A stretch of 64,000 nt of DNA from Candidatus Collierbacteria bacterium RIFOXYD2_FULL_45_13 (GCA_001774685.1 MFAS01000001.1:705485-769484); one strand, 5' to 3'; positions 2,841 through 58,441 are shown, counted from the first letter of the stretch. Numbers and translations: made by a program. The notes: generated by a model not told the origin, from the letters alone.

Positions 2841-2879
2841 AGGTAAAAATTGATAGTTATTTGAGTATATACTGAATTA

Positions 2880-7631: not shown

Positions 7632-7634
7632 TAT

Positions 7635-11105: not shown

Positions 11106-11122
11106 TCTTCCATTTTACGCCA

Positions 11123-16472: not shown

Positions 16473-16488
16473 ATTATTTAATTCTTAG

Positions 16489-17232: not shown

Positions 17233-17263
17233 GCTTACTCAAATTCTAGCGCCAAATAAGACT

Positions 17264-18727: not shown

Positions 18728-18981
18728 AAAACATTTGGAGGTTAACCTAAAAATTGTACAGCATGTGTTGCATAATTGCGCAGCTAAAAACTTACCAGAA
18801 TGAAAGAACACCAACTCTTCTGTCAGGAGGACTAATCATCATTTAGATAACATTATTTACACCGAAAACAAATCCAGATTAAAGTGTTCATTTTCATTTC
18901 ACAGTCTGCTTTAATTTTAAACCATTACCTAATAATGTATTTAGCTAGAAATCAAGATCAGAGACTGTAAATATAATGATA

Positions 18982-19500: not shown

Positions 19501-19501
19501 A

Positions 19502-21750: not shown

Positions 21751-21758
21751 ATTTGTAA

Positions 21759-22268: not shown

Positions 22269-22881
22269 AGGGGATAGAACCCTTAAGATTATCTAAATCC
22301 TGTTTTGGGATAAGTAAGTTCATAACTCTTTTTGTGTCATCCTTATCATCAGGAACATGGATAAGGTTAGAAGCGAATAAGTCAATACCAATTTGCTTTG
22401 TGGTCACAGGATCTAGGGTCCCGTTCTTCCACGCTTCGAGCGTTTGATCATCGATCGGATTACTGCTACCAAATCTTCCCCGAACTCCCTCGCCTGTTCT
22501 AACACTGCCCTTGAGTTTTTTTAATAAAATTGGTGCGTCCTTAGCCGCTACGAGCATGAGTCCAATCGGACCTGTTTGAAAATGCTCCTGAATATATTTT
22601 AAAAACTCCTCATGCTTCTGTTCAGGGTATAACTTCTTAACATCCTCAGGTTTAATACGGATTTCGGTAAATCCAAAAAATTCCACAGGTTTATCTGTCA
22701 TTTGTTCCAACTCTCGCTGGATAAAATCCCTAATGGGCAAATCAAGAAGCGAGTTGGTGGAATCAGGTTTAAAGAGAACCATGCCAATCCCATTTTTTTC
22801 TTCCTCGGGAGTTAATATGTCTTCGTAAAAATCTCCCATTTCACTAAATCTATTTTGAACATAATCTGGAGTTATTTCCAT
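22243..22881 (-). CDS. nucleoside diphosphate kinase-like protein (divergent)
   Basis: An MVLFKPDS region corresponds to the IKPD motif, and NLIHVPDD corresponds to the NxxHGSDS active-site His motif. At 212 aa it is longer than canonical NDK. Confidence 0.5.
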   Translation of the reverse strand: MEITPDYVQNRFSEMGDFYEDILTPEEEKNGIGMVLFKPDSTNSLLDLPIRDFIQRELEQMTDKPVEFFGFTEIRIKPEDVKKLYPEQKHEEFLKYIQEHFQTGPIGLMLVAAKDAPILLKKLKGSVRTGEGVRGRFGSSNPIDDQTLEAWKNGTLDPVTTKQIGIDLFASNLIHVPDDKDDTKRVMNLLIPKQDLDNLKGSIPFVNRWYSN

Positions 22882-23750
22882 ATTTCCAATTGTTTTATAT
22901 AATCCACAACCGACTCGGGCGATCCTTGAATTGAGTAACAGGGGATTTTTTGAGCAACTTCTTTAACGGATTGTATTCTATGGTCACCATTCGCACGACT
23001 ATCAATTGAAGGCACAGCGATATTACCATCTTTAACTCTTCTGGAGATTGCTCTAATTTTTCTACCTAGTTCTTCATATAAATGCCACTCAAATTTTTCC
23101 GGTCTCCAAAGATCTGTCGACATCTCAGCACCATTTATTCCAAAACCGTAGACAAATAAAGCGATCGGAACAGGTTCAGAATTATTAGTTGCTGAATGGT
23201 AATAAGAGTCCTCTTGTTTGTCGGTGATCTGTCTCTTCCAATAGTCTTTATCTAGATAAATAAAGGGGATTCCTCCAAGTATTTCCATATTCCTCGCATT
23301 AACTAATGTCTTCTCATCGGAATAGAAAGACCCATCATTTGCGAGCAGTTTTGCAAGCCTTGTCTTACCCATCCCACTTGCACCTCCCCAAAAGATTACA
23401 GCCTTGCCTTTATAAACTGCCGTAGCGGAATGAATACAAAAAATGCCTTTCTCCTGTCTGACTCTTTCAAAAACCAACTCTATTAATGAGATTATCTCTT
23501 TTTCGCTTACTCCTTTTATGCCTATTTTAATCTTCGGATAATCTTTAAATTCAAAAAAAACTTCTTGATTCAAAAATTCTACGCTAGCCTCAATATTATT
23601 ATCAGTCGCAAGAGAGAATCCTGGAATATATTTACTTAAAAAATCATTATTTTGTATTGTCTCCGCCAATTCACCACTCTCAAAAATCACTCTTAGTGTT
23701 AATCCTGCTGAAGAAAGGTATAGCTCTTTATTCTTTGATGGCATTTTCAA
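22872..23750 (-). CDS. HPr kinase/phosphorylase C-terminal-domain-like P-loop protein
   Basis: IHSATAVYKGKAVIFWGGASGMGKTRLAKLL matches the HprK-type P-loop region (VLIxGxSGxGKSE). Confidence 0.55.
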   Translation of the reverse strand: MKMPSKNKELYLSSAGLTLRVIFESGELAETIQNNDFLSKYIPGFSLATDNNIEASVEFLNQEVFFEFKDYPKIKIGIKGVSEKEIISLIELVFERVRQEKGIFCIHSATAVYKGKAVIFWGGASGMGKTRLAKLLANDGSFYSDEKTLVNARNMEILGGIPFIYLDKDYWKRQITDKQEDSYYHSATNNSEPVPIALFVYGFGINGAEMSTDLWRPEKFEWHLYEELGRKIRAISRRVKDGNIAVPSIDSRANGDHRIQSVKEVAQKIPCYSIQGSPESVVDYIKQLEIWK

Positions 23751-24846
23751 AATAATTTTCTAAATTCATTGCTTTTATATCCCAATTCCAGGTTTCGGAT
23801 TTTTTTCTGGCCTCATCGCCAATAGTGTTACGGAGAGTTTCATCCAATAGTAATTTTTCAATCTCGGTCGCGAGCGATACGGCATCCCGCGGATTCGCAA
23901 GTAGACCATTGACACCATGGTCTACAAATTCAGGCATGCTACAACTATTTGTTGTAACGGTTGGTATACCACAAGCCGCAGCTTCAAGCATCGTCGTTAG
24001 CACACCCTCACGATCAAATGATGGGGCAGAAAAAACTTTCGATCTGTTGTACAAGGAGAGTACATCTTCTTGGGGGACATAACCAATAAATTCGATATTG
24101 TCTGAAAGTTCTAGTCTATCAACCAGCTCTACCAACGACTCTTTCTGATTACCTTTTCCGGCAATCACCACTTTTGGATTTAGTCCTTTGTTAACTAAAA
24201 TTTTAACAGCATCGACAAGATAGTTAACACCTTTTACTGGAACCAGTCTGCCAAAATACAAAATATCTATGTCTTTGGTAACTTGTATTGGATGATAGTT
24301 TGTCGTATCTATCCCATTTGTGAAGGGTATATATTCAATTCCGCCAACCATTTCTGACCATTTCTGTCCAATATATTTTGATACTGAAATATATTTTACA
24401 TTTGGAAATGAGAACCAGATTTTGTCGTAATACTCTGCTTCAGCAGGAACACCGTGCAGAAACATTACTGCGGGGAACTTAATATTTGCAGCCAAAATAT
24501 CCACGTTGTAATGGACATTAAGTACGTCATAAATATTTTTATCGAAATAATTTTGAGCTAATCTTCCCATGTGAATAGCTTCGTAGTCCCATCTCAGCTG
24601 ATTTGTTCCGGGTTTTTCCTCATATATCCATCTGAGGGATGTGGGTAATTCAAGATAGATGACTTCAACGCTTGGATTCACTGAGAGATACTTGTCAAAA
24701 TATTCTGAGTTACCATCGGGATGGCGGGAAGTAACGACCGTTACCTTATGTCCATGTAAAGCAAAATTTCTAGCCATTTCCAGTGGAACCACCTCCCCAC
24801 CCCCAACATAATAACTTACCCTAGGCTGATAAATGGCTATTTTCAT
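23728..24846 (-). CDS. family 4 (GT-B) glycosyltransferase
   Basis: 372 aa with the C-terminal EGVLTTMLEAAACGIPTVTT motif (E-x7-E region) typical of GT4. Confidence 0.8.
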   Translation of the reverse strand: MKIAIYQPRVSYYVGGGEVVPLEMARNFALHGHKVTVVTSRHPDGNSEYFDKYLSVNPSVEVIYLELPTSLRWIYEEKPGTNQLRWDYEAIHMGRLAQNYFDKNIYDVLNVHYNVDILAANIKFPAVMFLHGVPAEAEYYDKIWFSFPNVKYISVSKYIGQKWSEMVGGIEYIPFTNGIDTTNYHPIQVTKDIDILYFGRLVPVKGVNYLVDAVKILVNKGLNPKVVIAGKGNQKESLVELVDRLELSDNIEFIGYVPQEDVLSLYNRSKVFSAPSFDREGVLTTMLEAAACGIPTVTTNSCSMPEFVDHGVNGLLANPRDAVSLATEIEKLLLDETLRNTIGDEARKKSETWNWDIKAMNLENYFENAIKE

Positions 24847-25334
24847 ATCAAATTATCTTTTAGAGTCATAATCTGTGCTTTTCCTGTCGGGCTGTTTGCC
24901 CAGCTTATATATTGGTCAAACTCGTCAATATCTATTAGTTTACGTTCGAAAATCTCGTCGTCGGGAATAAATTCCGGTAAATCACTCAATATTACTAAAA
25001 ATCTTAATTGTGAACTTGATTTACCCTCAACCCCTTCATTCTGAGGATCCGAAACTTTCATCCAACCTATCAATTTAGACTTATACCTCTCTTTGATTTC
25101 AGCTTCCTCGTCAAGTTCTCTTGCAAGAGCTTCTTCTACACTCTCTCCCTCCTCTGGGTGACCTCCTGGAATTGCCCACCCTCTCTTATTTCTCACAATA
25201 ATCAGCTTCCCTTTATATATACAGTAAGCACTCACCTGGCTGACTTTTAATGTGGGGTCAGGATTTCCTGAAAACCAGCTAATAGTAATATTACGATCAT
25301 CAAAATTGACTACCTCAGTTGCTAATGGTTCCAT
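24843..25334 (-). CDS. NUDIX hydrolase (D)
   Basis: Nudix box IPGGHPEEGESVEEALARELDEEAEI. Confidence 0.8.
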   Translation of the reverse strand: MEPLATEVVNFDDRNITISWFSGNPDPTLKVSQVSAYCIYKGKLIIVRNKRGWAIPGGHPEEGESVEEALARELDEEAEIKERYKSKLIGWMKVSDPQNEGVEGKSSSQLRFLVILSDLPEFIPDDEIFERKLIDIDEFDQYISWANSPTGKAQIMTLKDNLI

Positions 25335-25336
25335 TA

Positions 25337-26050
25337 TTATTTGTTACTAAGATTGTTAAATGATTCCAATAATACTATCTTAAAACCTCCGACAAAATTG
25401 GCCATTGCCTTTTGTGAAAACCAACCTAAGGGTAGAAAAATCACGCGAAATACTTCATAAAACAGTTTTGATCTCTTTGGTAGTGGAATATATCCCTCCT
25501 TCAAGATTTTAAAACCGGCAATCGTAAATAATTTATTTAACTGCTTTTCATTATAGTGATGAATATGACCATATCTCTCCTCGCTTTCCTTCCACGGGTC
25601 TCTAATGCCGAGTTTTCGGATAATTTGATTATCTAGAAAAGAATCTTCCATCGGAACTTTAATACAAACCAGCTTACCCAATTCACCCATGCGTTTTAAC
25701 AAACCCAAGTCATCTTCTACGTGTTCAATGATATCAATGCCTGTAACTAAGTCAAAATTTGCCTTAGGGGAGTACTTATATATATCCTCGCAAATCCACT
25801 CAATTTCATGGTCCGTATCATTCTCCTTCGCCACTTTTATCATATCTTTGGAAATATCAATTCCTACAGCCATATCTGGCTTTAGTTTTGCATTGAATTC
25901 CATGGTAATACCACCTGCACCACAAGCTACATCCAGAAGTGAGTCTATTTTTAGTGAACCTAAAAAATTTAAGACTTGCTTAGCTTTTAACTGAGCTTGT
26001 TCCAGATGAAGTCCCGGATTTTTTAAAATATATTCTTTTTGATAATCCAT
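25337..26050 (-). CDS. class I SAM-dependent methyltransferase
   Basis: Motif I LLDVACGAGGIT. It is the first gene of the overlapping operon. Confidence 0.8.
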   Translation of the reverse strand: MDYQKEYILKNPGLHLEQAQLKAKQVLNFLGSLKIDSLLDVACGAGGITMEFNAKLKPDMAVGIDISKDMIKVAKENDTDHEIEWICEDIYKYSPKANFDLVTGIDIIEHVEDDLGLLKRMGELGKLVCIKVPMEDSFLDNQIIRKLGIRDPWKESEERYGHIHHYNEKQLNKLFTIAGFKILKEGYIPLPKRSKLFYEVFRVIFLPLGWFSQKAMANFVGGFKIVLLESFNNLSNK

Positions 26051-43336: not shown

Positions 43337-43337
43337 T

Positions 43338-43355
43338 GTGACTCGGGGCGGACTC
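43338..43355 (-). repeat. 18-nt direct repeat of the tRNA-Arg(TCT) 3' end (att-like)
   Basis: gtgactcggggcggactc is identical to 43475-43492. Confidence 0.85.
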
Positions 43356-43475
43356 CTCTCGGTCACCACCTGCTGGTGGTGCCTCAAGACCCGGCTCAGC
43401 GCCGTCGCGCTTCTGCCATCCTCGCTCGCCCAAAATAACATTAAAAATCTCCCCACAAGGGAGAGATTTTCAATG

Positions 43476-43549
43476 TGACTCGGGGCGGACTCGGACCGCC
43501 GACCTACTGCTTAGAAGGCAGTCGCTCTATCCAGCTGAGCTACCGAGTC
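43476..43549 (-). tRNA. tRNA-Arg(TCT)
   Basis: Acceptor GACTCGG/CCGAGTC, D-arm AGCTCAGCTGGATAGAGC, anticodon stem ACTGC/GCAGT with loop CTTCTAA, and T-stem GGCGG/CCGCC. Confidence 0.8.
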
Positions 43550-43554
43550 AGGTG

Positions 43555-43638
43555 TGCCGGGGGCGGGAATCGGACCCGCACTCCTTTAGAGGGAACGGGA
43601 TTTTAAGTCCCGCGTGGCTACCATTTCACCACCCCGGC
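43555..43638 (-). tRNA. tRNA-Leu(TAA)
   Basis: Acceptor GCCGGGG/CCCCGGC, anticodon loop CTTAAAA, a long variable arm and T-stem GCGGG/CCCGC. Confidence 0.8.
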
Positions 43639-44029: not shown

Positions 44030-44060
44030 ATGAAAATCCCCGCTATACGGCGGGGACTTT
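44030..44060. terminator. terminator hairpin (bidirectional context)
   Basis: ccccgc-tatacg-gcgggg followed by acttttt. Confidence 0.65.
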
Positions 44061-44462
44061 TTCGTGTCTGTGAAAGTTGAAAGTCGCTTCAGCGAGAACC
44101 CAAGGGTAAGGCGTGCTTCCGCTAAAGGCAGGATCCTGCGCCTTACAGAGCTCAATGGCGAGTGCGTGAATCGCCAGGTGGCAGCTATAACAGACACACA
44201 CCGCATCCGCCCAGTACCTAAAGCCAAATGACTTGAATTTATCTACCGGGATGAGGTCGCCTACCCTATAAACTGAACCAGCCGGTGCGTCGGTAACTTT
44301 GTACGCATATTTTTCCGGATAAACACCTGGTACCAGTATCAAGTGTAAACCTGTTCCGGAGTGAAATGCCCGGTATTCACGGATCCCAAATTTCTTACCG
44401 CAGCAAAAGCAACGAGGGCTGACCCTCCTTAGTTCACTGGTAATGCTCGTTGGGTATGGCAT
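44043..44462 (-). CDS. hypothetical Cys-rich (zinc-finger-like) protein
   Basis: 139 aa with CFCCGKK and CVCYSCHLAIH clusters. It could be an HNH-like or zinc-ribbon fold, which is inference only. The true start is probably internal because the 3' end overlaps a terminator. Confidence 0.3.
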   Translation of the reverse strand: MPYPTSITSELRRVSPRCFCCGKKFGIREYRAFHSGTGLHLILVPGVYPEKYAYKVTDAPAGSVYRVGDLIPVDKFKSFGFRYWADAVCVCYSCHLAIHALAIELCKAQDPAFSGSTPYPWVLAEATFNFHRHEKVPAV

Positions 44463-44644: not shown

Positions 44645-47251
44645 TTATACTTGCCTTTTTCGCCAAAGGGAGAACAAGATAGAAACCAGAAGGGAAAGGA
44701 CAACTGTGGCAAGAACCAAAGAGACTGGATTCTTATAGATCGGAGTTTTGCTTTCCTCCGTTACCCGAATATCAAAGTTGAATTGTTTGGTATTGTCTCC
44801 TTCGAGGGTGACTTTTTGTTCTCTGGTAAAGTTGGCGTAGGCTATTTTGATCAAGTGGTTTCCTCCGGGAACGTTATGGAAAAGGGCGATTCCCTGCTTG
44901 TCGGTGTAGCTGGTTTGGATGTCGGAATGAATTTCTACTCTGGCATTAATGATCGGTTGATTTTGCTTACTAATGACCTTGACCTGGACAGTATAACCTT
45001 GCTGTTGGACCTGTTGCTTCTCTTCCTCAGACTGAACCGGAATTTGTTCTTGGTTAGTGATTTCGGTTTGTAAGTTTCCCTGAGTCTGATAGTTAACACC
45101 TGAAGCAGCCGAACTATAGTTAAGGGAAAGATAAAAGACTGGGTAATTGTAGCTATTACCTACCTGATCTTTCAAGCTAAGATTGGTTTGGTAGTATCCG
45201 TCGATTAATGGATAGGGAACAGTGATATAGAAACGGGCATATTTTTCATTAAGAGGTTCATCTTTGATGTCGGTTAAAGAATATTCTTTGGTCAGATGAT
45301 CAATAAAATCGCCTCGACTATCTTTTCTTTTCAGTGTTAGAGTTAGGGTTAGGGGGCCGGAACAAACTTTGTCAAAAGTATCCTTGGTATCATTAGCATT
45401 GGTTTTTGTAGAGCCTTGGTAGGGATCAGAGGCTTTACCAGAAAAAGATGGTGTTCGGTTGGTAACATTAAGTTTATAAACCTGACCTTGTGCAACAGTC
45501 GAAACATTGGCAACTGCCAGTTCAGAGATAGAAGGATTAGTTTTATCGAGATAAAAGTCTTTGGATTCTTCTTTGCTGTTGCCGGCATTATCATAAGCAA
45601 TTACTTTCCAGGAGTGCTTGCCCTCGGTTAGTTCAGCAGAGTCAAGGCCTTTGAAATAGACCCTGATCTGGTCGTTGGTTGAGTCAGAATCATTTTCGTT
45701 GGTAAATTCTACTTTAACACTGGAATCATCCTTCCAAACATAAGCTGAGGATCCGTTGCCAGAAGCCGGAATGCCGGTAGTAGACCAATTCTGGTTTTTG
45801 CCGTCATCCAGAAAAACCGAATAAGAACTGATACCGGCAGTAGCATCAGTGGCTTTTTTGAAAACTAAAGTTGGTCTGGTAAAGTCTTTGGTATAACCGG
45901 TGGGAGAATCCAAAGTCAGACTAATCGGAACGGTGGTGTCGATGGTAAAACTATCAGTTGAAGCATTGGCGTTACTCGTGGTATTGGAGTTGGAATCAGT
46001 AGCCCGTACATAGATCGTGTGGGCTCCGTCAGCTAGAGCTGGAGAAACGGTGCAGGTAAAAGCCTCGGAGGCCTCATCAAAAGTGCCATCGTCGGCCGTG
46101 CAGGCCGTCCAACTACCGGTGGTTCCGTCCATTTGATATTCAACGGAACTGACTGTACCTTCATCCTCAGTGGCTGTTCCTGTGATGGCTGGTGTGGCAT
46201 CAGAAGTTGGATCTGGAGAGAAAGCGGAAAGAGAAATTGAAGGCGCGGCGCTATCCGGGGTCGGAGTGTAATAGACTTTTCGGGTTCTGGACCCCGTATC
46301 TCCGCCAATCAACCACATCTGGCTATCATAGACGACGGAAGAATGGGTATAAGTGGCTACCGGCAAAGCGTCGGTGCCCGCCTCTGTCCAGGTAATACCA
46401 TCAGCTGAGGAGTAGACTCTTCGGGACCTAGCAAATGAAGTCGTAGCTCCTCCAATCACCCACATTTTGCTATCAAAAACGACTGCAGCACTCCATCCAG
46501 TAACCACCGGCAAAGCATTGGTGCCTGCTTCTGTCCAGGTAATCCCATCACTAGAGTAGTAGACTTTTCTGACGAGACCCCCAGCGTATCCTCCAATCAC
46601 CCACATTTTGCTATCAAAGACGACCGAAGAATGGTTATAAGTGGCTACCGGCAAAGCATTGGTGCCTGCTTCTGTCCAGGTAATCCCATCACTAGAGTAG
46701 TAGACTTTTCGGGTTGCGGCAGGAACTGACCCCCCTATCACCCACATTTTGCTATCGAAAACGACCGAAGAATGACCTTCAGTACGCACCGGCAAAGCGT
46801 CGGTGCCCGCCTCTGTCCAGGTAATACCATCGGTAGAGTAGTAGACTTTTCTTTTTATTGCGTCTACGCCCCCGGCCCCAGTATTTCCGCCTATCACCCA
46901 CATCTTGCTATCAAAGACTACAGAAGTATGATTGTAAGTACCCACCGGCAAAGCGTCGGTGCCCGCCTCTGTCCAGGTAATACCATCGGTAGAGTAGTAG
47001 ACTTTTCGGGTTGCGCTCCCCGTATTTCCTCCAATCACCCACATTTTGCTATTGAAAACGATGGAAGAAAGATAGGATGTGGCTACTGGCAAGGCGTCAG
47101 TTCCCGCTTCGACCCAAGAGGAGCCGTCAGGAAGAGCCAGAACTGTTTTGGTTACCAGTGGATTAAACAGAAAAGAGATAAGAAAGCAACTCAAGAGAAC
47201 TATTCTAGATAAGATTTTTTTGATATTAAAGATTTTCAAAAACTTATTCAA
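44645..47251 (-). CDS. cell-surface protein: signal peptide, six or seven Kelch-like beta-propeller repeats, Ig-like domains and a C-terminal TM anchor
   Basis: 868 aa. A roughly 49-aa repeat (YYS.DGITWTEAGT.ALPV......SSVVFDSKMWVIGG) occurs six or more times and is encoded by near-identical 147-bp DNA units. The C-terminal hydrophobic segment is followed by RKRQV. Confidence 0.7.
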   Translation of the reverse strand: MNKFLKIFNIKKILSRIVLLSCFLISFLFNPLVTKTVLALPDGSSWVEAGTDALPVATSYLSSIVFNSKMWVIGGNTGSATRKVYYSTDGITWTEAGTDALPVGTYNHTSVVFDSKMWVIGGNTGAGGVDAIKRKVYYSTDGITWTEAGTDALPVRTEGHSSVVFDSKMWVIGGSVPAATRKVYYSSDGITWTEAGTNALPVATYNHSSVVFDSKMWVIGGYAGGLVRKVYYSSDGITWTEAGTNALPVVTGWSAAVVFDSKMWVIGGATTSFARSRRVYSSADGITWTEAGTDALPVATYTHSSVVYDSQMWLIGGDTGSRTRKVYYTPTPDSAAPSISLSAFSPDPTSDATPAITGTATEDEGTVSSVEYQMDGTTGSWTACTADDGTFDEASEAFTCTVSPALADGAHTIYVRATDSNSNTTSNANASTDSFTIDTTVPISLTLDSPTGYTKDFTRPTLVFKKATDATAGISSYSVFLDDGKNQNWSTTGIPASGNGSSAYVWKDDSSVKVEFTNENDSDSTNDQIRVYFKGLDSAELTEGKHSWKVIAYDNAGNSKEESKDFYLDKTNPSISELAVANVSTVAQGQVYKLNVTNRTPSFSGKASDPYQGSTKTNANDTKDTFDKVCSGPLTLTLTLKRKDSRGDFIDHLTKEYSLTDIKDEPLNEKYARFYITVPYPLIDGYYQTNLSLKDQVGNSYNYPVFYLSLNYSSAASGVNYQTQGNLQTEITNQEQIPVQSEEEKQQVQQQGYTVQVKVISKQNQPIINARVEIHSDIQTSYTDKQGIALFHNVPGGNHLIKIAYANFTREQKVTLEGDNTKQFNFDIRVTEESKTPIYKNPVSLVLATVVLSLLVSILFSLWRKRQV

Positions 47252-47322
47252 AGTATATTTAGTGTATCAAGCGTGTTACACAATTGCAACATATATTACA
47301 GTTAGTATATTCCCATTATTGG

Positions 47323-49773
47323 CTATTTAAATATACCAACAATTAAATTACATATTTTCGAAATTATATCCTGTGTTTTCGAAAAGATTGTACTCTGGTT
47401 ATTTGATAACACAGGCGCTACAACCGAGGTAACAGGGGTTGCTTCGGGAACATCGGTATCTTCGGTCTGTAAAGGGGTAACCTCTGGATTTGTTGTATAA
47501 GACCCAGAACTATAACTTAGATAAAAAGGGCTCATGGTTAATTTGTTATTTGACAAGTCAGTTACCTCAATGACAACTTTATACAAACCATTAACCAGTG
47601 GCTTTGACGGGGTCAAACTAAAGGTAGTGTACTTTGTTAAACTATCACTCAAAATATTCGCAAGCTCAGCACTGGTCAAACTATAATCATAGTATTTTTT
47701 ATATGCGCCTTGTTTTTTAATATCTATAGATACAGTCTTTGGCCCAGAGGCCACACTCTCAAAAGTATCGGTCGTTCCATCAGAATTTGTTTTAGTGCTT
47801 CCCATGAATTTATCAAAAGCAGTGCCCGAAAAAACCGGGTTTCTGAATTGCGATTTAAGCCGGTATGTCTTGCCCGGTGTGATAGAACCGAGTCCTTGAA
47901 TGGCTAGACTTTTGATTTCTGGGTTTGTCTTGTCCAGGTAAACATTATTGGACACGACTCTTTCATTTAACTCACTGTCATAAGCCGTGACTGACCAGGA
48001 ATGGGCTCCTTCAGACAAAAAGTTTGGCTCAAAACCTTTGATTAAGACAGTTATTTCATCGTTGCCTGAGTCTGAGTCGTTTTCGTTACGATAAGTTACT
48101 TTATAGTTACTGTCATCTAAATGGACATAATCCTGTTGGCCGTTTCCGCTGGCCGGTAAACCTGAAATAACGAAGTTTCGATGTTTGTCTCTATCAAAGT
48201 TGACGGAATAAGAGGAGATACCATTGGTATCCGATGACTTATTAAAAACCAATACGGGTTTGTTGTCATTGGTATAATCGACAGGAGAAATCATCTTAAA
48301 ACTTACCGGCGGCGTAATATCCAATGTATAAGTTAACATGAAAATATCAGTTGATCCATTTGAAGTATGGGGCTCACTGTTGTTGTCGCCATTAAAATTC
48401 ATAGTGTTGGCAAACGCACCCGATACATGAAAAGTATTTGAATAAATATCAATAAATGTAGGATAATCGTAGCCTGTTCCTCCCCACGTTCTGGTCCATT
48501 GATAATTAAGGTCGCTATCATATTTCGTGAGGTATAAATCATACAAGCCGTTTGATACATGATTATCAACGCTTTCGCTTGAATCAAAATCAATGGTGTT
48601 TGAAAAAATTCCCCAAATATACAGATTATTGTTGACATCTTTAGTTATATTATAAGCCTCATCTACTCCACTTCCACCAACTGTTTTTATGGATTTGAAA
48701 TTTCCATCTAAGGATAACTCTAGAATATAAATATCAGAAGAACCGCCCACTGTTTTGTTTTGAGTTCCAGAACCTGGATCGAAATCGACAGTGGTAACGA
48801 ATATGCCCGATATCAGGATTCTATCACCAACAAAGGTAAAACCCATCGCACGATCAGTACCCGATCCGCCCCAATTTTTAACCCAAAGAAAGTTTCCGTC
48901 GGCGTCAAATTTTGAGATAAAGTTGTCGTAGCTTCCGTTTGATGTTCGATTGTCTGTACCCGATCCAGGGTCAAAATCGACGGTGTTGAAAAAATCTCCT
49001 AATAGATAAAAATTGTTGTTTGCATCAAAATAAATTTGATCGGAATAATCATGATTACTCCCTCCAAACGTTTTTGTCCAAACATGATTACCACTTAAAT
49101 CGAATTTTGTAAGAAAGATATCGTATCCGCCATTTGAAGTATGATTGTCTGTACCTGCGCCCGGATCAAAGTCTGGTGTGGAGAAAAATCTGCCATAAAC
49201 ATATATATTTGTATAATCATTATTAAAAGAAACTATTTCTGGCCTATCGTGAGAATCTCCACCCCATGTTTTGGTCCACTGATGATTACCATTTGAATCA
49301 TACTTAGTCAGGAAACCATCAAGGCCGTTTGCGGTATGATTGTCTGTACCTGCACCTGGGTCAAAATCAACAGTACTTTCGAATTCTCCAGTAACGTAAA
49401 CATTGTTGTCGGTGTCAAAAGTTAAGCTATTATAATCATCAAAAGTTCCTGCCCCCCCCCAAACCTTTGTCCATAAGTAATTACCGCCGGAATCGTATTT
49501 AGAAAGAAACATATCATATCCTCCCGCAGAAGTATAACTATCAACACCTACCGTCGGGTCAAAATCAACAGTTGTTGAAAAATAACCAAAAATATATGTG
49601 TTTCCGTCAAAATCTGTTTTTACTTTTGCCCAATCAACCCCGCTTCCACCAATTGATATGCCTGATTGATAAATTAAACCATCCACGGCTAGAATCTTTT
49701 GTGGAAACACAAACGAAAGCGAGAATATTGTTATTGATACGCAGACAGCCCTGATAAACATACGGATATTCAT
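47323..49773 (-). CDS. secreted protein with SBBP-type beta-propeller repeats and a C-terminal half paralogous to the upstream gene
   Basis: 816 aa with a signal peptide. About eight repeats of the form WTKTWGG...D......GN.YV.G.F..TVDFDPG.GTDN match the SBBP beta-propeller pattern. The C-terminal roughly 300 aa (ISSYSV...PASGNG...NENDSDS...DKTNP) aligns to the upstream protein. Confidence 0.7.
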   Translation of the reverse strand: MNIRMFIRAVCVSITIFSLSFVFPQKILAVDGLIYQSGISIGGSGVDWAKVKTDFDGNTYIFGYFSTTVDFDPTVGVDSYTSAGGYDMFLSKYDSGGNYLWTKVWGGAGTFDDYNSLTFDTDNNVYVTGEFESTVDFDPGAGTDNHTANGLDGFLTKYDSNGNHQWTKTWGGDSHDRPEIVSFNNDYTNIYVYGRFFSTPDFDPGAGTDNHTSNGGYDIFLTKFDLSGNHVWTKTFGGSNHDYSDQIYFDANNNFYLLGDFFNTVDFDPGSGTDNRTSNGSYDNFISKFDADGNFLWVKNWGGSGTDRAMGFTFVGDRILISGIFVTTVDFDPGSGTQNKTVGGSSDIYILELSLDGNFKSIKTVGGSGVDEAYNITKDVNNNLYIWGIFSNTIDFDSSESVDNHVSNGLYDLYLTKYDSDLNYQWTRTWGGTGYDYPTFIDIYSNTFHVSGAFANTMNFNGDNNSEPHTSNGSTDIFMLTYTLDITPPVSFKMISPVDYTNDNKPVLVFNKSSDTNGISSYSVNFDRDKHRNFVISGLPASGNGQQDYVHLDDSNYKVTYRNENDSDSGNDEITVLIKGFEPNFLSEGAHSWSVTAYDSELNERVVSNNVYLDKTNPEIKSLAIQGLGSITPGKTYRLKSQFRNPVFSGTAFDKFMGSTKTNSDGTTDTFESVASGPKTVSIDIKKQGAYKKYYDYSLTSAELANILSDSLTKYTTFSLTPSKPLVNGLYKVVIEVTDLSNNKLTMSPFYLSYSSGSYTTNPEVTPLQTEDTDVPEATPVTSVVAPVLSNNQSTIFSKTQDIISKICNLIVGIFK

Positions 49774-49999: not shown

Positions 50000-50186
50000 C
50001 CTGCCCGCCGGTAGGTGGGGGAGTCGGCCTCTTCGGTCTCGCTTACTAGCTCGCCTCTGAGCGCGCCTCGCCGCCAGTCGCGCTTCCGGCGGGATCAGCT
50101 CTCGTAAGAGCTAGTGCCGAAATATCTTTCGGCGCCGACTAGTTCACACAACAAAGTCCCCCATAAAGAGGGACTTCGTTTTATTG
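50000..50186 (-). repeat. GC-rich tRNA-flanking element downstream of tRNA-Gly(TCC)
   Basis: Hairpin aagtccc-ccataaaga-gggactt next to the tRNA. A core gaagcgcgactggcggcgaggcgcgctcagaggcgag is homologous to the cores of the other three elements. A degenerate copy of the tRNA 3' end (gtgggggagtcgg) sits at 50014-50027. GC content is visibly far above local background. Confidence 0.55.
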
Positions 50187-50257
50187 AGCGGGTGAGGGGA
50201 GTCGGACCCCTTTCATCAGCTTGGAAAGCTGAGGTAATACCGGTATACGACACCCGC
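50187..50257 (-). tRNA. tRNA-Gly(TCC)
   Basis: Perfect acceptor GCGGGTG/CACCCGC, anticodon stem TCAGC/GCTGA with loop TTTCCAA, and T-stem AGGGG/CCCCT. The T-loop is the atypical TCCGACT. Confidence 0.7.
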
Positions 50258-50920: not shown

Positions 50921-50955
50921 AATAAATCTCTCCCTCGTGGGGAGATTTTTATTTG
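50921..50955 (+). terminator. Rho-independent terminator after tRNA-His; also the 5' part of the tRNA-flanking element
   Basis: aaatctctccc-tcgt-ggggagattt followed by ttatttgg. The hairpin is almost identical to the one next to tRNA-Arg. Confidence 0.65.
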
Positions 50956-53284: not shown

Positions 53285-53821
53285 CTATGGACTTATCAAA
53301 GTCAAACCTGGATTGGTACCGACTTCATAAACCGTTGCTGAAGTTCCGCCATCGTTCTGGGCCACTGCCGCGTTGGAGGTCGATTCCAAATAGGCGTCTA
53401 ACTCATACGTAGAACCATTGCTCTTGAAGCTATAAACCATCGCTCCGGCAGCAATCTGAGTTGTTCCATCCGAGAGAGTAGTAGCGACCGTTGCAGATTG
53501 ACGTGGATCAATTGGAAGAACAGACAGATATTTGGAAACATCCATTCCCAAATAGTTACTCGCACTAGTTGTGTCACGGCTTCCAGCCGACGTACCGGTA
53601 AAAGGAACCGCCACAGTCCCAGGTAACGAATCACCTTCCGCAATTGCCAAATCAATAGCTTTACGCATTGTTGCCAAATCGGACAACCTAGTCGTATCAC
53701 GGCTTTTTCTCTGAGCCTCGGCAGGATTAATTGCCAGAACCACCAGAGTAGCCAAAATACTTAAAATTGCAATAACCACCAGCAACTCAATCAAAGTAAA
53801 CCCTTTTAGTATTTTATTCAT
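53285..53821 (-). CDS. type IV pilin (prepilin with class III signal)
   Basis: MNKILKG|FTLIELLVVIAIL is the prepilin cleavage/methylation motif, with Glu at +5. Confidence 0.85.
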   Translation of the reverse strand: MNKILKGFTLIELLVVIAILSILATLVVLAINPAEAQRKSRDTTRLSDLATMRKAIDLAIAEGDSLPGTVAVPFTGTSAGSRDTTSASNYLGMDVSKYLSVLPIDPRQSATVATTLSDGTTQIAAGAMVYSFKSNGSTYELDAYLESTSNAAVAQNDGGTSATVYEVGTNPGLTLISP

Positions 53822-53864
53822 TCATTATTCACCACCTTTCAAATCTAATTAATAATTATATAAG

Positions 53865-54137
53865 TTAGTCAAAGGGCTCCATTCGCACCACCGGCAAATT
53901 GGAAGAAATAATGGATCTAACCGAAGCTCTTAAAACACCTAAATTCTCTTGCTTAATAGTCGGTACATTTTCGGATATAGTTATGGAACTTTCTCGAGAT
54001 AACCTTGCCTGCCAGACTTGAATCAATAAAAAACCCCAAAACATTGTCCAAAGCACAATAGTGACCGCCACCTCCAGATTAATTTTAAGAACCAGTTGAT
54101 TCTCCTGCTCTTTGATGGTCATATCATTTCTTTTCAA
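53865..54137 (-). CDS. small membrane protein in the pilus locus
   Basis: 90 aa with one TM helix. Confidence 0.35.
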   Translation of the reverse strand: MKRNDMTIKEQENQLVLKINLEVAVTIVLWTMFWGFLLIQVWQARLSRESSITISENVPTIKQENLGVLRASVRSIISSNLPVVRMEPFD

Positions 54138-54654
54138 CCCCCATAATTAGTGATCCGTTTACAATTGCTTTCACTCCAGTTTTGACTTCATGTTTCAATA
54201 TGGTAATCTTGTCAACCTTGAAAAAATACTGCATGGAAGACAGCTTGGAAAAAAAGCTGGTTAGGCCCTGAAAGCTTCCCTCCAGTGTAATTTCCATGCC
54301 CAAGCCCAACATATTTTTACCTGCTATATCCACTTGTTTCGGAAAATCATCAAAATGATTCGAGATTGTCAAGCCCGACTCTTTCGCAAACCGTTCCACC
54401 ACAGCTGTAAAATTCGCTACTTCGTATTCATCCGCAGGCAATGTGTTGCTATACCTTACCGCCTCATTTGACAAACGGGGCATTTCTCGTGATAGGTCGT
54501 CCAATTTAATCATATTGGCTTCCTGTCTAACCACTTCCACTTTCAATTTATTGACACTCTCTAAATCCCTGACCGTCTTTACAGAATAAAACCCGGACGC
54601 TAACGCAATCATAAATAATATAAGTAAGTGAATTATTGGTGGCTGAACTTTCAT
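54124..54654 (-). CDS. PilO/PilN-like pilus assembly protein
   Basis: N-terminal TM helix, coiled coil and a C-terminal alpha/beta domain; sits in the pilM-to-pilin interval. Confidence 0.5.
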   Translation of the reverse strand: MKVQPPIIHLLILFMIALASGFYSVKTVRDLESVNKLKVEVVRQEANMIKLDDLSREMPRLSNEAVRYSNTLPADEYEVANFTAVVERFAKESGLTISNHFDDFPKQVDIAGKNMLGLGMEITLEGSFQGLTSFFSKLSSMQYFFKVDKITILKHEVKTGVKAIVNGSLIMGVEKK

Positions 54655-56105
54655 TTGGTGGACATGTTTGCAATGCGAAAGGTAATGCCGGCCTCTTTTT
54701 CCAAACTCCCAAAATAAAGCTTGCCATCGGAAAAGGTGGTATTTGAGAGCAAATCGTTATAAAAACTTAGCACCAATGGCCTTGAATTGGCCGATCCCGT
54801 GATCACCCAAGAGTTTCCCCGTTCATACAATCTCTTTATGCCTGGGTTCCTGCTAATCACCAAACTAGTCAAAACAATTCCTTCCGGAGTTACCGCAGAA
54901 AGTTCCTTCAAGATATTTTCCTCACCACCCGTACTCTCCCTTAGAGTCATCAGCTGACCGGTGACCTGATTTAAATGATCGGCTTGAACGATAAGTGTCT
55001 GACTTTGTGGAAGTTGTAGTCGCTGTTGGTACCGATCAGAAAGTATAGATAGTTCTTTTTTGTCTGTAACTGCCAGTGCGTCAACGTAATACAAAGCCAA
55101 AACACCTACCAGGGAAAATGCTATTAATATATCCATCGAAACCCTCCAATAATGCATCAGGCGGTTCTTGACAATGGCCAATCGAAAATCGACCGGTAGA
55201 AGATTTAACGAAGGCTGCAAATCAAATGTTTTAAGGCTCAAGCCGTGGGAGGTATGTAACAGAGAATGGTTTATCACCTTGGTACTCTCCAAACGACTGA
55301 CCGCTTTAGTCGCAATGATGTTTTGGGTTTTAAGATCCAGTGCTACGGTGTTGATATCTTGTCTGGATCCTGAAACAAGCAGCTCCGTTACGGGCCGATT
55401 GGTGTGTTTTGAATTAGCAAAGTTTACATACGAAGTAATCGTCTTAGAAATATCCCCATTTTTGTCAATCTCCGACTGGGGCAAAAAATCCGAAAATCGT
55501 GGGTTGCCACCGGTTACATAAGAAAATACACCAAAACTATCGCCCAGATACACCAGCAATAAGTTTTTACCCAGAAGCTGGCTCGGTTCAATAATTCTAA
55601 TATTCGCAAAAACTGCCGGTTCAACAGCCAAAACTCGCAATCCCATGGAAGTACAGATTGAAACACAGTTTTCGATAATCGTTCTTGGAATAGCCGCCAG
55701 CAATACTTCAATCAAACCTTCCGCTGTTTTACCAAGGATAACCGAATCTGTTTCCACTCCGCTTGGCAATACCGGTAATAATGAACGTATCTGATAATCT
55801 ATAGCGTCGCTAAGATTTTTACCCGGTACGTTGGGAACCGAAAATTCACTTAAAAATACTCGATTGTCGTTTACCCCAATTACTACATCGCTATTTAAAC
55901 TAATCGGTTTGGGCTTAGCGGTACCAAATAGTAATTGAAGAATTTGGATAAAACCACCGCGATTCTTTATTTCACTGTTCACCACCAAGCCCGGGGGTAG
56001 AACCAATTGATTAAATCTTTCCAACCTTTGTCCATCGGCAGACACCTGAGACAATTCAATGAAGTTGTCGTTAAAGTAGAGTCCTAATGATGGTTTGGCA
56101 GGCAT
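54651..56105 (-). CDS. PilM-like actin-fold ATPase fused to a PilN-like TM/periplasmic segment
   Basis: An N-terminal roughly 330 aa actin-like fold (GLYFNDNFIELSQV), then a TM helix (ILIAFSLVGVLALYYV) and a coiled-coil tail. Confidence 0.55.
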   Translation of the reverse strand: MPAKPSLGLYFNDNFIELSQVSADGQRLERFNQLVLPPGLVVNSEIKNRGGFIQILQLLFGTAKPKPISLNSDVVIGVNDNRVFLSEFSVPNVPGKNLSDAIDYQIRSLLPVLPSGVETDSVILGKTAEGLIEVLLAAIPRTIIENCVSICTSMGLRVLAVEPAVFANIRIIEPSQLLGKNLLLVYLGDSFGVFSYVTGGNPRFSDFLPQSEIDKNGDISKTITSYVNFANSKHTNRPVTELLVSGSRQDINTVALDLKTQNIIATKAVSRLESTKVINHSLLHTSHGLSLKTFDLQPSLNLLPVDFRLAIVKNRLMHYWRVSMDILIAFSLVGVLALYYVDALAVTDKKELSILSDRYQQRLQLPQSQTLIVQADHLNQVTGQLMTLRESTGGEENILKELSAVTPEGIVLTSLVISRNPGIKRLYERGNSWVITGSANSRPLVLSFYNDLLSNTTFSDGKLYFGSLEKEAGITFRIANMSTK

Positions 56106-56120
56106 CTATATATCATCTTA

Positions 56121-57473
56121 CTAATACTCGCGAATATTCACAACATTCCAACCGCCACTATCGGGCACTACGATGGCTCTCGCTAAGCTGGGATCATATT
56201 GAATTGTCGAATTGTTCTTTATGTGAATTTTCTTACCCAATATTCCGTTTATCTTCGAATTAGACCCAACATTGATACAGCCGTCGATTGCCACAAACAC
56301 GACTGTTGCTGTATTGCTTGTCATATCAATTGCGGGTAAATTGGCGCAGTCCAGGCTTTGATTTTCGGAAATAAAGATAATTCCGGCACCCTGTGAGTTA
56401 CGATTAAACTGGACGTTGCTACTAGTCACCACCCTCCCTTTAATTGTTGGGTTATCAGGATCGGAGGCCACTATCATAATCGAGTTTTTGTTAGTATCTT
56501 CACTGGTATAGAGGATGTTATTTTGAGAAATATTCACATCACCTTTAATCCATAGTGGACCACTAATCGTTAAATTTACTCCGCTGGGGACATTCAAGTT
56601 TCCCAATATTTCTTTGTTGCCTATAATTCTCGTCCCGTTCGAACAATCGGTTCCGTCCGAACTGGCGATGTTACAATCACCATCCCAAATTCCTCCCTCA
56701 AGGGCTTTATTTTTCCAGTAAGCCGCATCAACACTGGACAGAGTGGCCGGCAGAGGCGGTGAAGAAATTTCAAAACTGCCGCTATAGGGGCAGTTTGTGG
56801 GTGGTGTGCTGGCTCTGACACTCCCTCCAATAAGACACGCCGTCAGGGTACTAGCCCAAGCATTTTTTTGAATATACACGCCTCCGCTATCCAGAGAGTT
56901 CAAGCCCCCAATGGATCCAACCGCCCAGACACTTCCCAATATTTTTGATCCTGCGTTACCCGAGTTTGCTTTAATTCCCAAGACCGGGCCGTTTGAATAA
57001 ACATTTCCGGGTGCGCCATTGCTTCCGGTTACCGTCGTGTTTCCTTCCAGCTCAAAACCACCTTCCCCTGATTGTGCGGCAAATACAAAACTGGCTTTAC
57101 TCGAAGACGACGCAATTGTAACCTCTAAGTTTTTTATGACACCACCCTCGTACCCGGAAGACCTCACTATCTTTTGGTTACTATCTCCGGTCACCGAAGC
57201 CGATACGGTTGCCCCGTTGGACAAGGTAATTCCAACCGAATATGAACTGCCAAAGTCTTGATGAGACCGAAGCCGGTACATGATCTCATCCACCCCGGAC
57301 CATGCCGCATACCAGGCCTGATTTGTCTGAGTAATTGTATCCTCGATTTGGACATTACTAATCGATAGGGAGCTACTGGCCAAAACACTCATGATCGAAA
57401 CTAGTCCTAAGATTAGTACCAATATCAAGCTGGCCTGACCGTGTTGTCCCCTTACAGTATTACAGATGTTCAT
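56121..57473 (-). CDS. large pilus-associated protein with Gly/Asn/Ser-rich beta-helix-like repeats
   Basis: 450 aa with an N-terminal hydrophobic pseudopilin-like segment lacking the canonical GFTLxE, then repeats such as GSNGAPGNVYSNGPVLGIKANSGNAGSKILG. It sits inside the minor-pilin block. Confidence 0.45.
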   Translation of the reverse strand: MNICNTVRGQHGQASLILVLILGLVSIMSVLASSSLSISNVQIEDTITQTNQAWYAAWSGVDEIMYRLRSHQDFGSSYSVGITLSNGATVSASVTGDSNQKIVRSSGYEGGVIKNLEVTIASSSSKASFVFAAQSGEGGFELEGNTTVTGSNGAPGNVYSNGPVLGIKANSGNAGSKILGSVWAVGSIGGLNSLDSGGVYIQKNAWASTLTACLIGGSVRASTPPTNCPYSGSFEISSPPLPATLSSVDAAYWKNKALEGGIWDGDCNIASSDGTDCSNGTRIIGNKEILGNLNVPSGVNLTISGPLWIKGDVNISQNNILYTSEDTNKNSIMIVASDPDNPTIKGRVVTSSNVQFNRNSQGAGIIFISENQSLDCANLPAIDMTSNTATVVFVAIDGCINVGSNSKINGILGKKIHIKNNSTIQYDPSLARAIVVPDSGGWNVVNIREY

Positions 57474-57965
57474 TTAATCAATAAGGTTGACATATGACAA
57501 GGAAAAAGATTTTTGAAAAACATCAAAGGGAAGTATCGTCTGAATCGTACCGTTCACCTTTACCAATCGGCCGCCTGTAGAGATGGGTAATACTACAAAA
57601 GAAATTGCTTCAATTTTTGTTGACGACGGAAAAAAGAAATTACTCGGATTTATCTCAGGAGTACAGCCGCTTTGCATTTTAGCCGAGTACCTGACATTTT
57701 TATTTCCCTCATCGTAGACAAAACTCCAGCATTCGGACTGAGATCGCAAAAATATAGATTGAGTATCTCCGGAGATACTTTGAGCTCCTAGGACGGCTTC
57801 TCGAAAAAATCTTTCAAATACTCTGACACTCTCATCCGTTTTTGTCGTAGTCAATGTTAAATCACGTAAGTTTAAACTTAAAAACAAAATGTAGACGGAA
57901 GTGACGCTTACAAGTGACACTATGGTCATGGCAAGAAGTGTTTCAAATAGCGTAAAACCTCTCAT
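57474..57965 (-). CDS. minor pilin / pseudopilin
   Basis: MRG|FTLFETLLAM prepilin motif. Confidence 0.75.
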   Translation of the reverse strand: MRGFTLFETLLAMTIVSLVSVTSVYILFLSLNLRDLTLTTTKTDESVRVFERFFREAVLGAQSISGDTQSIFLRSQSECWSFVYDEGNKNVRYSAKMQSGCTPEINPSNFFFPSSTKIEAISFVVLPISTGGRLVKVNGTIQTILPFDVFQKSFSLSYVNLID

Positions 57966-58441
57966 CGCCAGTAAGTAATTAATGAACTCAGGTGTATTTC
58001 TTTGTTTTGCCCGCCTTGCAACCAGCTTACCTTTACCTCGGCGTTTAGACTTCCCGGATCGTCAATTCCACCCTGAACAGTAATGTCACATACGGCTGCG
58101 AAACAAACCAAGCTTCGCTGCACCGGACCAAGGGTAATAGATCTGGTAAAGCTCCCAATCGTCTCCTGTCCGGCCGCCAAGCTCCATCTGCTTCCATCAA
58201 ATACGGGGTGAAAAACTCCCACACTCAAATCTAAAAAATTCTCAGCCCTCATACTCTGTAGCACCTCCATCGCTTCAACGGATAAAGTATTTGCTTGTGA
58301 ACGAAGCTGATTTATTGTCACACTGGAGGTGGTTAATCTATTAGCGGCCACACTGCCCACCGCCAATACCAGCAGGACTGCCACCGAAACCATCGCTTCG
58401 ACCAAAGTAAATCCGGTATGCTGTCTAGTCCACGATGCCAT
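57962..58441 (-). CDS. minor pilin / pseudopilin
   Basis: HTG|FTLVEAMVSVAVL prepilin motif. Confidence 0.75.
   Translation of the reverse strand: MASWTRQHTGFTLVEAMVSVAVLLVLAVGSVAANRLTTSSVTINQLRSQANTLSVEAMEVLQSMRAENFLDLSVGVFHPVFDGSRWSLAAGQETIGSFTRSITLGPVQRSLVCFAAVCDITVQGGIDDPGSLNAEVKVSWLQGGQNKEIHLSSLITYWR

Follow-up and report, generated by a model that had tools for sequence, protein, structure and literature searches.

Two adjacent, probably surface-displayed proteins of Candidatus Collierbacteria with different propeller heads on a conserved Ig-like stalk cassette

Two adjacent genes with different N-terminal heads

We analysed a pair of adjacent minus-strand genes, here called gene A and gene B, in a 64,000-nucleotide (nt) stretch of the genome of Candidatus Collierbacteria bacterium RIFOXYD2_FULL_45_13 (GCA_001774685.1, MFAS01000001.1:705485-769484; this whole stretch is referred to as the window, and coordinates are counted from its first letter). 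A first-pass annotation of the window had placed two adjacent giant paralogous surface proteins at 44645-49773. An open reading frame (ORF) scan found two intact ORFs at exactly these coordinates, and no internal stops were present in either of them in the window sequence; the products, at 816-868 amino acids (aa), are not giant. According to NCBI, the host of both products is Candidatus Collierbacteria, identical copies are found in the GW2011 Collierbacteria genomes, and an exact match of the window also occurs in GCA_001774675.1 (contig MFAP01000001.1, 1.09 Mb); the source is an ultra-small groundwater bacterium of the group Candidatus Collierbacteria (Microgenomates, within the Patescibacteria or candidate phyla radiation, CPR). 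The start codon of gene A is TTG, and a second TTG four codons downstream is used in some annotations (864 aa). The two genes contain the following features, where Ig stands for immunoglobulin and AF2 for AlphaFold2.

44645-47251, minus strand: gene A, 868 aa (OGD73285.1, A3K29_04085; ORF scan, Pfam, full-length AF2 model with mean pLDDT 78.8)
47138-47251, minus strand: N-terminal hydrophobic segment of A, aa 1-38, presumed Sec signal peptide (hydropathy windows aa 7-40; AF2 helix 10-29 with low pLDDT)
46262-47131, minus strand: six-bladed Kelch propeller of A, aa 41-330 (PF24681 E 4.6e-37; blade alignment; AF2 pLDDT 93-98; Foldseek)
47027-47131, 46886-47026 and 46730-46885, minus strand: Kelch blades b1-b3 (blade alignment)
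46589-46729, 46448-46588 and 46301-46447, minus strand: Kelch blades b4-b6 (blade alignment)
45935-46261, minus strand: Big_13 Ig-like domain of A, aa 331-439 (PF19077 44.4 bits against a cutoff of 27; weak Ca_tandemer match)
45104-45934, minus strand: stalk module of A, aa 440-716, two tandem Ig-like beta-sandwiches (BLASTP, AF2, Foldseek, family search)
44756-44995, minus strand: CarboxypepD_reg or prealbumin-like beta-sandwich of A, aa 753-832 (PF13620 30.9 bits against a cutoff of 32.3; AF2 pLDDT mostly 80-95)
44651-44728, minus strand: C-terminal transmembrane helix of A, aa 842-867 (840-865 by hydropathy), with basic tail RKRQV (hydropathy 2.58; AF2 helix 842-867; same ending in family members)
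47323-49773, minus strand: gene B, 816 aa (ORF scan; OGD73286.1, A3K29_04090)
48313-49686, minus strand: SBBP-type propeller of B, aa 30-487, seven ~65-aa repeats marked by [ST]TVDFDP (CylK E 1.3e-33; NF047494; PF06739; repeat positions)
47497-48312, minus strand: stalk module of B, aa 488-759 (BLASTP, profile match, module tree)
47326-47376, minus strand: C-terminal amphipathic peptide of B, TQDIISKICNLIVGIFK (comparison of C-termini; matches the conserved F.SWV.NLFK.IFHK end of 'type 2' family members, see below)

Protein A runs from a signal or N-terminal helix through the six-bladed Kelch propeller, the Big_13 domain, the two-domain Ig-like stalk module, a linker and the CarboxypepD_reg-like domain to a C-terminal transmembrane anchor, while protein B consists of a signal peptide, the seven-repeat SBBP-type propeller, the stalk module, a low-complexity tail and a short amphipathic end without a transmembrane anchor. 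By hydropathy, an N-terminal hydrophobic segment is present in both proteins, in agreement with the signal peptides noted earlier, and a C-terminal one in A only, where a hydrophobic helix followed by RKRQV matches the membrane anchor that had been assigned to this protein. A motif search found no LPXTG sortase signal at the C-terminus of A or B, and the sole [LIV]P.[TSA]G matches were to the internal module motif G[IL]PASGNG (aa 494 in A and aa 539 in B); sortase anchoring was rejected because the C-terminal LPXTG is absent.

Gene A is predicted to carry a closed six-bladed Kelch head

The Kelch repeats reported for one N-terminal half were readily recovered, as PF24681 (127.9 bits, cutoff 50) and Kelch_1 (52.3 bits, cutoff 20.1) both passed in gene A. 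Structure prediction, which the first-pass annotation had proposed as a check on the propellers, gave a confident six-bladed Kelch fold in which blade 1 is closed by a C-terminal RKVYY strand (aa 324-328). In Foldseek searches this model matched the six-bladed propellers of LZTR1, NS1-BP and KEAP1 with TMt 0.78-0.82, and the designed protein SAKe6 was also among the best matches; the top 50 structural matches that were inspected were all six-bladed Kelch domains. As modelled, the head of A is a closed six-bladed Kelch propeller. It resembles the Kelch propellers of LZTR1, KEAP1, NS1-BP, KLHDC2/3 and bacterial Kelch repeat proteins in sequence and fold, but it differs from them in its extracellular context with a signal peptide and in having phage tail-module proteins as its nearest relatives. 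Unlike those of usual Kelch proteins, its blades are unusually uniform, each with [YS]S[ST][DA]DGITWTEAG.

In sequence, the Kelch head is closest (55-59% identity) to a set of ~425-aa proteins without a signal peptide that share a conserved N-terminus and whose C-terminal domain matches a PHROG baseplate family. On a viral contig (IMGVR_UViG_3300022871_000048, positions 548-11130; L009), genes for a tape measure protein, a baseplate hub, a wedge, a 646-aa Kelch protein that is 44% identical to the head of A, and an RCC1 propeller tail protein follow each other in this order, and weaker Kelch matches in GenBank phages are labelled as tail fibre or virion structural proteins. The phage Kelch tail-fibre or receptor-binding proteins (L009; P0010-P0018) belong to the same Kelch subtype, with 44-59% identity to the head of A, but they lack its signal peptide, stalk module and transmembrane anchor; in place of these, their N- and C-terminal domains are phage-specific. 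In the phage tail module, this subtype occupies the position of the tail fibre. It seems that phages can exchange propeller heads as receptor-binding modules, and we infer that the Kelch subtype of A serves as a phage receptor-binding head, which would support a binding role for A. On a JGI contig (Ga0598267_0006059, positions 2603-7349), three genes for these nearest relatives (~421 aa) alternate with GIY-YIG homing endonucleases.

Gene B carries a seven-repeat SBBP-type head

About eight SBBP-type repeats had been described in the second protein. SBBP-type homology and the TVDFDP repeats were confirmed, but there are seven repeats with a spacing of ~65 aa. The head matched the CylK propeller in the PDB (E 1.3e-33) and the models NF047494 (E 7.9e-31, 107 bits, short of the cutoff of 400) and PF06739 (18.4 bits, short of the cutoff of 20.5), which points to a significant relationship with SBBP-type propellers although the scores stay under the family cutoffs. 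In addition, B has the repeat signature yD.fl.Ky...Gn..W.k..G of the seven-bladed SBBP-type propellers of CylK (7fh6/7ron) and Leptospira LipL53 (NF047494); compared with these, each repeat of B adds a TVDFDPGxGTDN loop. The significant stretches between B and CylK were all within CylK residues ~250-668, which form the propeller, and the sole alignment to residues 87-146 was non-significant. The N-terminal domain of CylK reportedly forms part of the active site. We rejected gene B as a CylK-type Friedel-Crafts enzyme, since it has no match to this domain and resembles CylK in the propeller only. Exact DNA repeats inside gene B reached 20 nt at most.

The two proteins share a stalk module of two Ig-like domains

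The shared C-terminal module described earlier was fully apparent: BLASTP aligned A and B at 39% identity over 374 aa (E 2e-65), the common module is ~275 aa long, and the modules alone are 42% identical. No dedicated Pfam family exists for it. The AF2 model of the module, built from an 11-sequence alignment, consists of two all-beta sandwiches (pLDDT 85.8, pTM 0.72), and a D-x-T-x-P boundary motif opens each of the two Ig-like domains. Foldseek against the PDB matched the module model to SiiE BIg domains (2yn5, E 9.5e-8), the C-terminal domains of SpaP and SspB, RbmA and the Ig domains of PrgB; the TM-scores of these matches were low because the inter-domain angles differ. According to the model, the shared module is a divergent pair of bacterial Ig-like domains, with a D-x-T-x-P motif typical of Big_13-like repeats. 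A module profile matched A (E 1.9e-147, positions 1-276) and B (E 1.4e-134, positions 1-277), but these values arise partly by construction, since both proteins sat in the seed alignment; the independent check is BLASTP of A against B and against P0001-P0009. Outside the module, the Big_13 score of gene B (17.6 bits) is under the cutoff of 27. The CarboxypepD_reg-like domain of A, which is preceded by a Glu/Gln-rich linker (44996-45103), scores just under the family cutoff, while the aligned regions of its homologues are over it with 38-43 bits.

The highest TMq listed for the module model (0.39) was to the Deinococcus HPI surface-layer (S-layer) protein (8cka_B), as would be expected if A and B were structural envelope or S-layer-associated components. 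However, the matches are to generic tandem Ig-like folds, and variable heads on a conserved stalk, together with the single gene copy at each locus of relatives, are more in keeping with display proteins than with a lattice; we regard an S-layer role as highly improbable. The closer comparison is with Ig-stalk adhesins (SiiE and other BIg-repeat proteins; the C-terminal domains of the Streptococcus AgI/II proteins SpaP and SspB; PrgB), in which, as in A and B, a tandem Ig-like stalk carries a functional head. A further point of resemblance is the Big_13 and Ca_tandemer similarity of A. In contrast to the tens of Ig-like domains in SiiE-type adhesins, the stalk of A and B is short, with two to three such domains, and the heads are propellers. 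Compared with SiiE-type and AgI/II adhesins, A and B have no C-terminal LPXTG, and no features of the type I secretion system were noticed. The anchoring is also unlike that of SiiE and SpaP, with either a transmembrane helix after CarboxypepD_reg or a short amphipathic tail.

The stalk and its endings recur with interchangeable heads in Patescibacteria

A profile search with the module, covering 1.84 billion representatives, returned 243 cluster representatives at E<=1e-30 and 5061 at E<=1e-3. The idea of a very rare domain, which came from a word-indexed search that gave only nine proteins, was overturned by this exhaustive search. The weaker matches include generic giant Ig-repeat adhesins aligned to parts of the profile, and dozens of proteins of 800-1400 aa match the whole module without interruption. 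The module was absent from IMG/VR viral contigs. The titled family loci belong to Patescibacteria, Roizmanbacteria and Microgenomates. Two further contigs, L003 and L004, are short and had been assigned to Gammaproteobacteria and Ignavibacteriales bins; they carry typical members, 61-63% identical to the module of A, and their assignment outside the CPR is most likely a binning error.

Pfam scans of 22 family proteins and of related loci revealed a recurring plan of a signal peptide, a variable head, usually a Big_13 domain, the module and one of three endings. The heads are Kelch (gene A itself), NHL/SBBP, PQQ and FG-GAP propellers, right-handed beta-helix, BNR (sialidase-like), GDSL esterase and GH130-like domains, and several heads had no Pfam match. 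The type 1 ending, as in A, consists of a Glu/Lys-rich linker, a CarboxypepD_reg sandwich, a transmembrane helix and a basic tail, and all type 1 members scanned run on into CarboxypepD_reg. The type 2 ending, as in B, has a ~60-aa low-complexity tail and the conserved amphipathic end F.SWV.NLFK.IFHK (DIISKICNLIVGIFK in B), and in the type 3 ending the linker is followed directly by a transmembrane helix. In one subfamily, a ~15-aa amphipathic C-terminal peptide (F.SWV.NLFK.IFHK or FNFFTWVNGLFSKLFRR) stands in place of the transmembrane anchor (L015, positions 2560-2622; L020; L024; L026); this peptide could serve for attachment or sorting, as a signal not described so far.

In a neighbour-joining tree of the module, A grouped with P0138, and the long branch that holds B also holds P0175, an 816-aa protein that is homologous over its full length (41% identity). 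The heads have been shuffled on the conserved stalk across the family: the module of A shares 76% identity with the one in P0138, a protein with an SBBP head, and only 42% with that of B. The description of the two genes as paralogous holds for the homologous module but not in the sense of a local duplication: the tree places the two modules on distant branches and indicates that A and B are ancient, deep-branching homologues which are neighbours by chance rather than local or recent duplicates. No adjacent pair of family genes was found at the 27 other loci, many of which are on short contigs. The literature yielded nothing on Collierbacteria together with Kelch proteins or under the assembly accession.

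The diversity of heads bears on whether these proteins bind or catalyse. If the heads were enzymes, A and B would be displayed extracellular scavenging catalysts, with a Kelch mutarotase- or oxidase-like activity in A and a CylK-like activity in B. The GDSL esterase, beta-helix (lyase-like), BNR (sialidase-like) and GH130-like heads of other family members would suit this explanation, as would the label of N-acetylneuraminate mutarotase that JGI gives to some Kelch homologues and the CylK propeller match of B (E 1e-33). However, the CylK similarity is of the repeat-to-repeat kind and leaves the N-terminal part of CylK unmatched, the proteins most closely related to the Kelch head are binding proteins of phage tail modules, and no catalytic motif was identified, none having been tested for. 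We consider it unlikely that the heads of A and B are enzymes and favour binding modules on a shared stalk.

Exact repeat cores in the Kelch head coincide with single-blade deletions in other assemblies

The first-pass annotation had also described the blades of gene A as nearly identical 147-bp units and had taken them as a sign of recent expansion. The spacings of the blade units are 147, 141, 141, 156 and 141 nt, the units (141-156 nt) are 66-79% identical in pairwise codon-aligned comparisons, with b1 the most diverged (78% matches in Tandem Repeats Finder, TRF), and perfect identity is confined to the cores of two adjacent blade pairs, b2/b3 and b4/b5. Neither the near-identity of whole units nor the recent expansion is upheld by these 64-65-nt patches. 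The cores are as follows.

46787-46851, minus strand: exact 65-nt core in blade b3, identical to 46943-47007; junction of the 156-nt deletion allele (exact repeat search; junction in L031 and L032)
46943-47007, minus strand: exact 65-nt core in blade b2, identical to 46787-46851 (exact repeat search)
46506-46569, minus strand: exact 64-nt core in blade b5, identical to 46647-46710; junction of the 141-nt deletion allele (exact repeat search; junction in L033)
46647-46710, minus strand: exact 64-nt core in blade b4, identical to 46506-46569 (exact repeat search)

The first pair quoted earlier does exist, but ~3-5 nt away from the positions that had been given; the 64-nt string quoted for it occurs exactly twice (46788-46851 and 46944-47007), with none expected from shuffled sequences, and the match extends to 65 nt. 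The second pair, reported near 46500 and 46648, was found as the 64-nt cores of b5 and b4. TRF detected no simple-sequence repeats at the locus. For a mosaic of perfect cores within units of 66-79% identity, gene conversion or partial homogenisation is a better explanation than the recent duplication of whole units.

The first-pass annotation had suggested comparing repeat copy number in reads; a comparison across assemblies revealed deletion alleles of 156 and 141 nt. The 90%-identity cluster of gene A holds length variants that are 100% identical to A elsewhere: P0273 (812 aa) lacks aa 82-133, which corresponds to 156 nt, and P0275 (817 aa) lacks aa 181-227, which corresponds to 141 nt. Both deletions are in frame and remove one blade each, with clean junctions, free of Ns, inside an identical core. 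The 156-nt deletion is present in L031 (ENA ERZ27254750, MEGAHIT contig k141_641925, 985 kb) and L032 (ERZ28563792, ANAN16 scaffold, SAMN03842452), both of which agree with the window without a mismatch in flanks of 6297 and 8207 nt and have the junction in the 65-nt core, and the 141-nt deletion is present in L033 (ERZ28564302, SAMN03202995) with its junction at the 64-nt core. All three assemblies are 100% identical to the window over 13-14 kb. The cluster of gene B showed no length variation of this kind. Of the view of a recombination-prone contingency locus, what is supported is that copy number differs between assemblies exactly at the cores; the changes in blade number seen were deletions only, which may be artefacts, and reversible, frequent switching would go beyond them. 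As in tandem-repeat adhesins and other surface proteins of variable repeat number, one unit between exact direct repeats is lost in frame in otherwise identical genomes; in A, however, the repeats are blades of a closed propeller, so that the loss of a unit, if it is real, should disrupt the fold rather than merely shorten the protein.

Whether these alleles exist in cells has to be weighed against assembly error, in which short-read assemblers would have mis-traversed the loop formed by the 64-65-nt repeats, the locus would be stable and the cores would have no effect in the population. The deletions are exactly those expected from a skipped repeat loop, the identical flanks give no independent sign of another strain, and the six-blade form is dominant. 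Kelch propellers have six or seven blades, and the structural matches included none with five. The collapse of repeats had been raised as a risk from the start. On the other hand, each variant contig lost one of two equally long repeat pairs while most assemblies lost none, the same 156-nt deletion came from different pipelines (the MEGAHIT k141 contig and the original ANAN16 scaffold), the junctions are clean, and final k-mers of 100-141 would normally be expected to resolve a 65-nt repeat. The chances of an artefact and of real recombination or slippage are rated about even, and assembly collapse stays a live alternative.

The tRNA-flanked neighbourhood gives few signs of a mobile island

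The gene pair had been placed next to a tRNA and integration hotspot. The tRNA genes that flank the pair are as follows.

50186-50257, minus strand: tRNA-Gly(tcc), upstream of gene B (tRNA scan; Rfam)
43475-43638, minus strand: tRNA-Leu(taa) and tRNA-Arg(tct), downstream of the gene pair (tRNA scan; Rfam)

The window contains 11 tRNA genes, and an Rfam scan found nothing in it besides tRNAs. The pair is indeed flanked by tRNA genes, but the window contains no recombinase relic and no duplicate of the 3' end of tRNA-Gly; more generally, no relics of integrases or recombinases and no att repeats at tRNA-Gly were found in it. That A and B are the cargo of a mobile island which inserted itself at a tRNA gene could be argued from the bracketing tRNA genes, from the G+C content at third codon positions (GC3) of gene B (0.30-0.39 compared with 0.47-0.55 in housekeeping genes), from two copies of a 25-nt hairpin that bracket a 7.45-kb block, and from a Roizmanbacteria contig on which a large serine recombinase lies between tRNA-Gly(tcc) and a family member. 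However, tblastn of this recombinase against the window returned only noise from its overlap with the tRNA, no direct repeat of the tRNA-Gly 3' end is present, GC3 of the Kelch region (0.505) is typical of the genome, the hairpins are terminator-like elements 3' of tRNA genes, tRNA genes are dense throughout the window, and the locus is identical in all strain assemblies seen. An island origin of the pair is very doubtful. The Kelch region taken by itself as foreign DNA (52% GC) was rejected, since its GC3 is at the housekeeping level; its high GC content results from the amino-acid composition.

The Roizmanbacteria contig (JAPLYQ010000046.1, L007, positions 845-5035) carries, in this order, tRNA-Gly(tcc), the gene of a 509-aa large serine recombinase, which overlaps the tRNA at its 3' end, and a beta-helix-headed member split by a frameshift into 559 aa and 246 aa; it is possibly an integrated element beside a family gene. 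The 25-nt terminator-like hairpin, AAATCTCTCCCT-NNN-GGGGAGATTT followed by a T run, has only two copies in the window, at 43445-43469 (minus strand) and 50924-50948 (plus strand). One copy directly follows the 3' end of tRNA-Arg(tct), and the other is located 3' of tRNA-His; they face outward, and the block between them holds five tRNA genes and both A and B. A 38-nt stretch at 43337-43374 shares 76% identity with the 3' portion of tRNA-Arg(tct) (43474-43511), 137 nt apart from it, and may be a tRNA fragment or relic. Elsewhere in the window, 16000-26000 forms a compositional island with a GC content of 0.34-0.40, compared with 0.42-0.48 in the rest, and ~ten minus-strand ORFs.

The intergenic gap between A and B is 71 nt, and a consensus scan found no terminator-like hairpin in it. 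A 139-aa Cys-rich ORF (44043-44462, minus strand) lies directly downstream of A and is present in the inspected strain assemblies that reach past A, and a bidirectional hairpin is located at 44037-44056, beyond this ORF. Because no terminator-like hairpin was found in the gap and one occurs past the 139-aa ORF, genes B and A and this ORF are probably co-transcribed. The 139-aa ORF has no Pfam match, and the small neighbouring ORFs gave no Pfam matches except DUF5671. Type IV pilus-related genes (PilO and an N_methyl prepilin-type protein) are located at ~53285-58441 (minus strand), 3-8 kb beyond gene B.

Proposed function of the two proteins

The features described above make it likely that A and B are cell-surface display proteins in which variable propeller heads, most likely binding modules, stand on a conserved Ig-like stalk cassette, with the exact cores in A as breakpoints of single-blade deletions. 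Both proteins would probably be exported through the N-terminal signal peptide by the Sec route. The topology of A suggests a type-I membrane protein whose propeller is held off the membrane on four beta-sandwich domains, and B, with an amphipathic end instead of a transmembrane helix, would probably be attached peripherally or released. The stalk with its C-terminal end serves as a cassette across Patescibacteria that takes interchangeable heads, both propellers and enzyme-like folds, and the heads of A and B would most likely bind a ligand or glycan for attachment to a host cell or substrate. Gene conversion within the gene probably keeps the 64-65-nt cores identical and, if the deletions are real, recombination or slippage at the cores would turn the six-bladed propeller into a five-unit form and probably inactivate or alter the head.

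Several points tell against this reading. Signal-peptide cleavage was deduced from hydropathy and inspection rather than by a dedicated predictor, and several family heads have enzyme folds, so that a catalytic or scavenging role of the cassette or the propellers is possible. As for the deletions, at least 20 contigs, from SPAdes, MEGAHIT and NCBI assemblies, have six blades compared with three that have the five-unit form, an exact scan of JGI metagenome contigs with the core DNA pattern had no hits and so added no variants, and no five-bladed Kelch domain was among the 50 top structural matches inspected, so that a five-unit product may not fold.

The role as adhesins or host-interaction proteins that had been proposed for A and B is a reasonable one, by analogy with cultivated relatives. 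Cultivated Saccharibacteria depend on the propeller-bearing pilin PilX2 to bind their hosts efficiently (PMC11623550) and on multiple adhesins to grow as epibionts (PMC10633639). A host-attachment role is plausible for the uncultivated Collierbacteria because Saccharibacteria need a propeller-bearing pilin and multiple adhesins. More speculatively, the Kelch head could be a natural, recombination-driven propeller of variable blade number: conversion would keep the cores identical, recurrent deletions would reach high frequency in certain aquifer samples, and the switch would disable or retune a surface receptor or adhesin under selection from phages with homologous Kelch tail fibres or from a change of host. 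We give this scenario little credence. Overall, the sequence observations of the first-pass annotation were mostly right and its evolutionary claims overstated, and it is well supported that A and B are an ordinary kind of object, lineage-specific modular surface proteins, with the single-blade deletions as the one interesting point.

If the blade-deletion alleles are true, a natural population would vary in the structure of a closed propeller; otherwise, as artefacts, they would cleanly illustrate how 65-nt exact repeats corrupt gene models in widely used CPR assemblies. The resemblance of a cellular Kelch head to phage tail-module proteins suggests that binding modules are shared or exchanged between phage and cell. 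For Patescibacteria beyond the cultivated Saccharibacteria, the lineage-wide stalk-and-anchor cassette provides a scaffold for comparing heads across genomes and a searchable list of candidate host-interaction or scavenging proteins.

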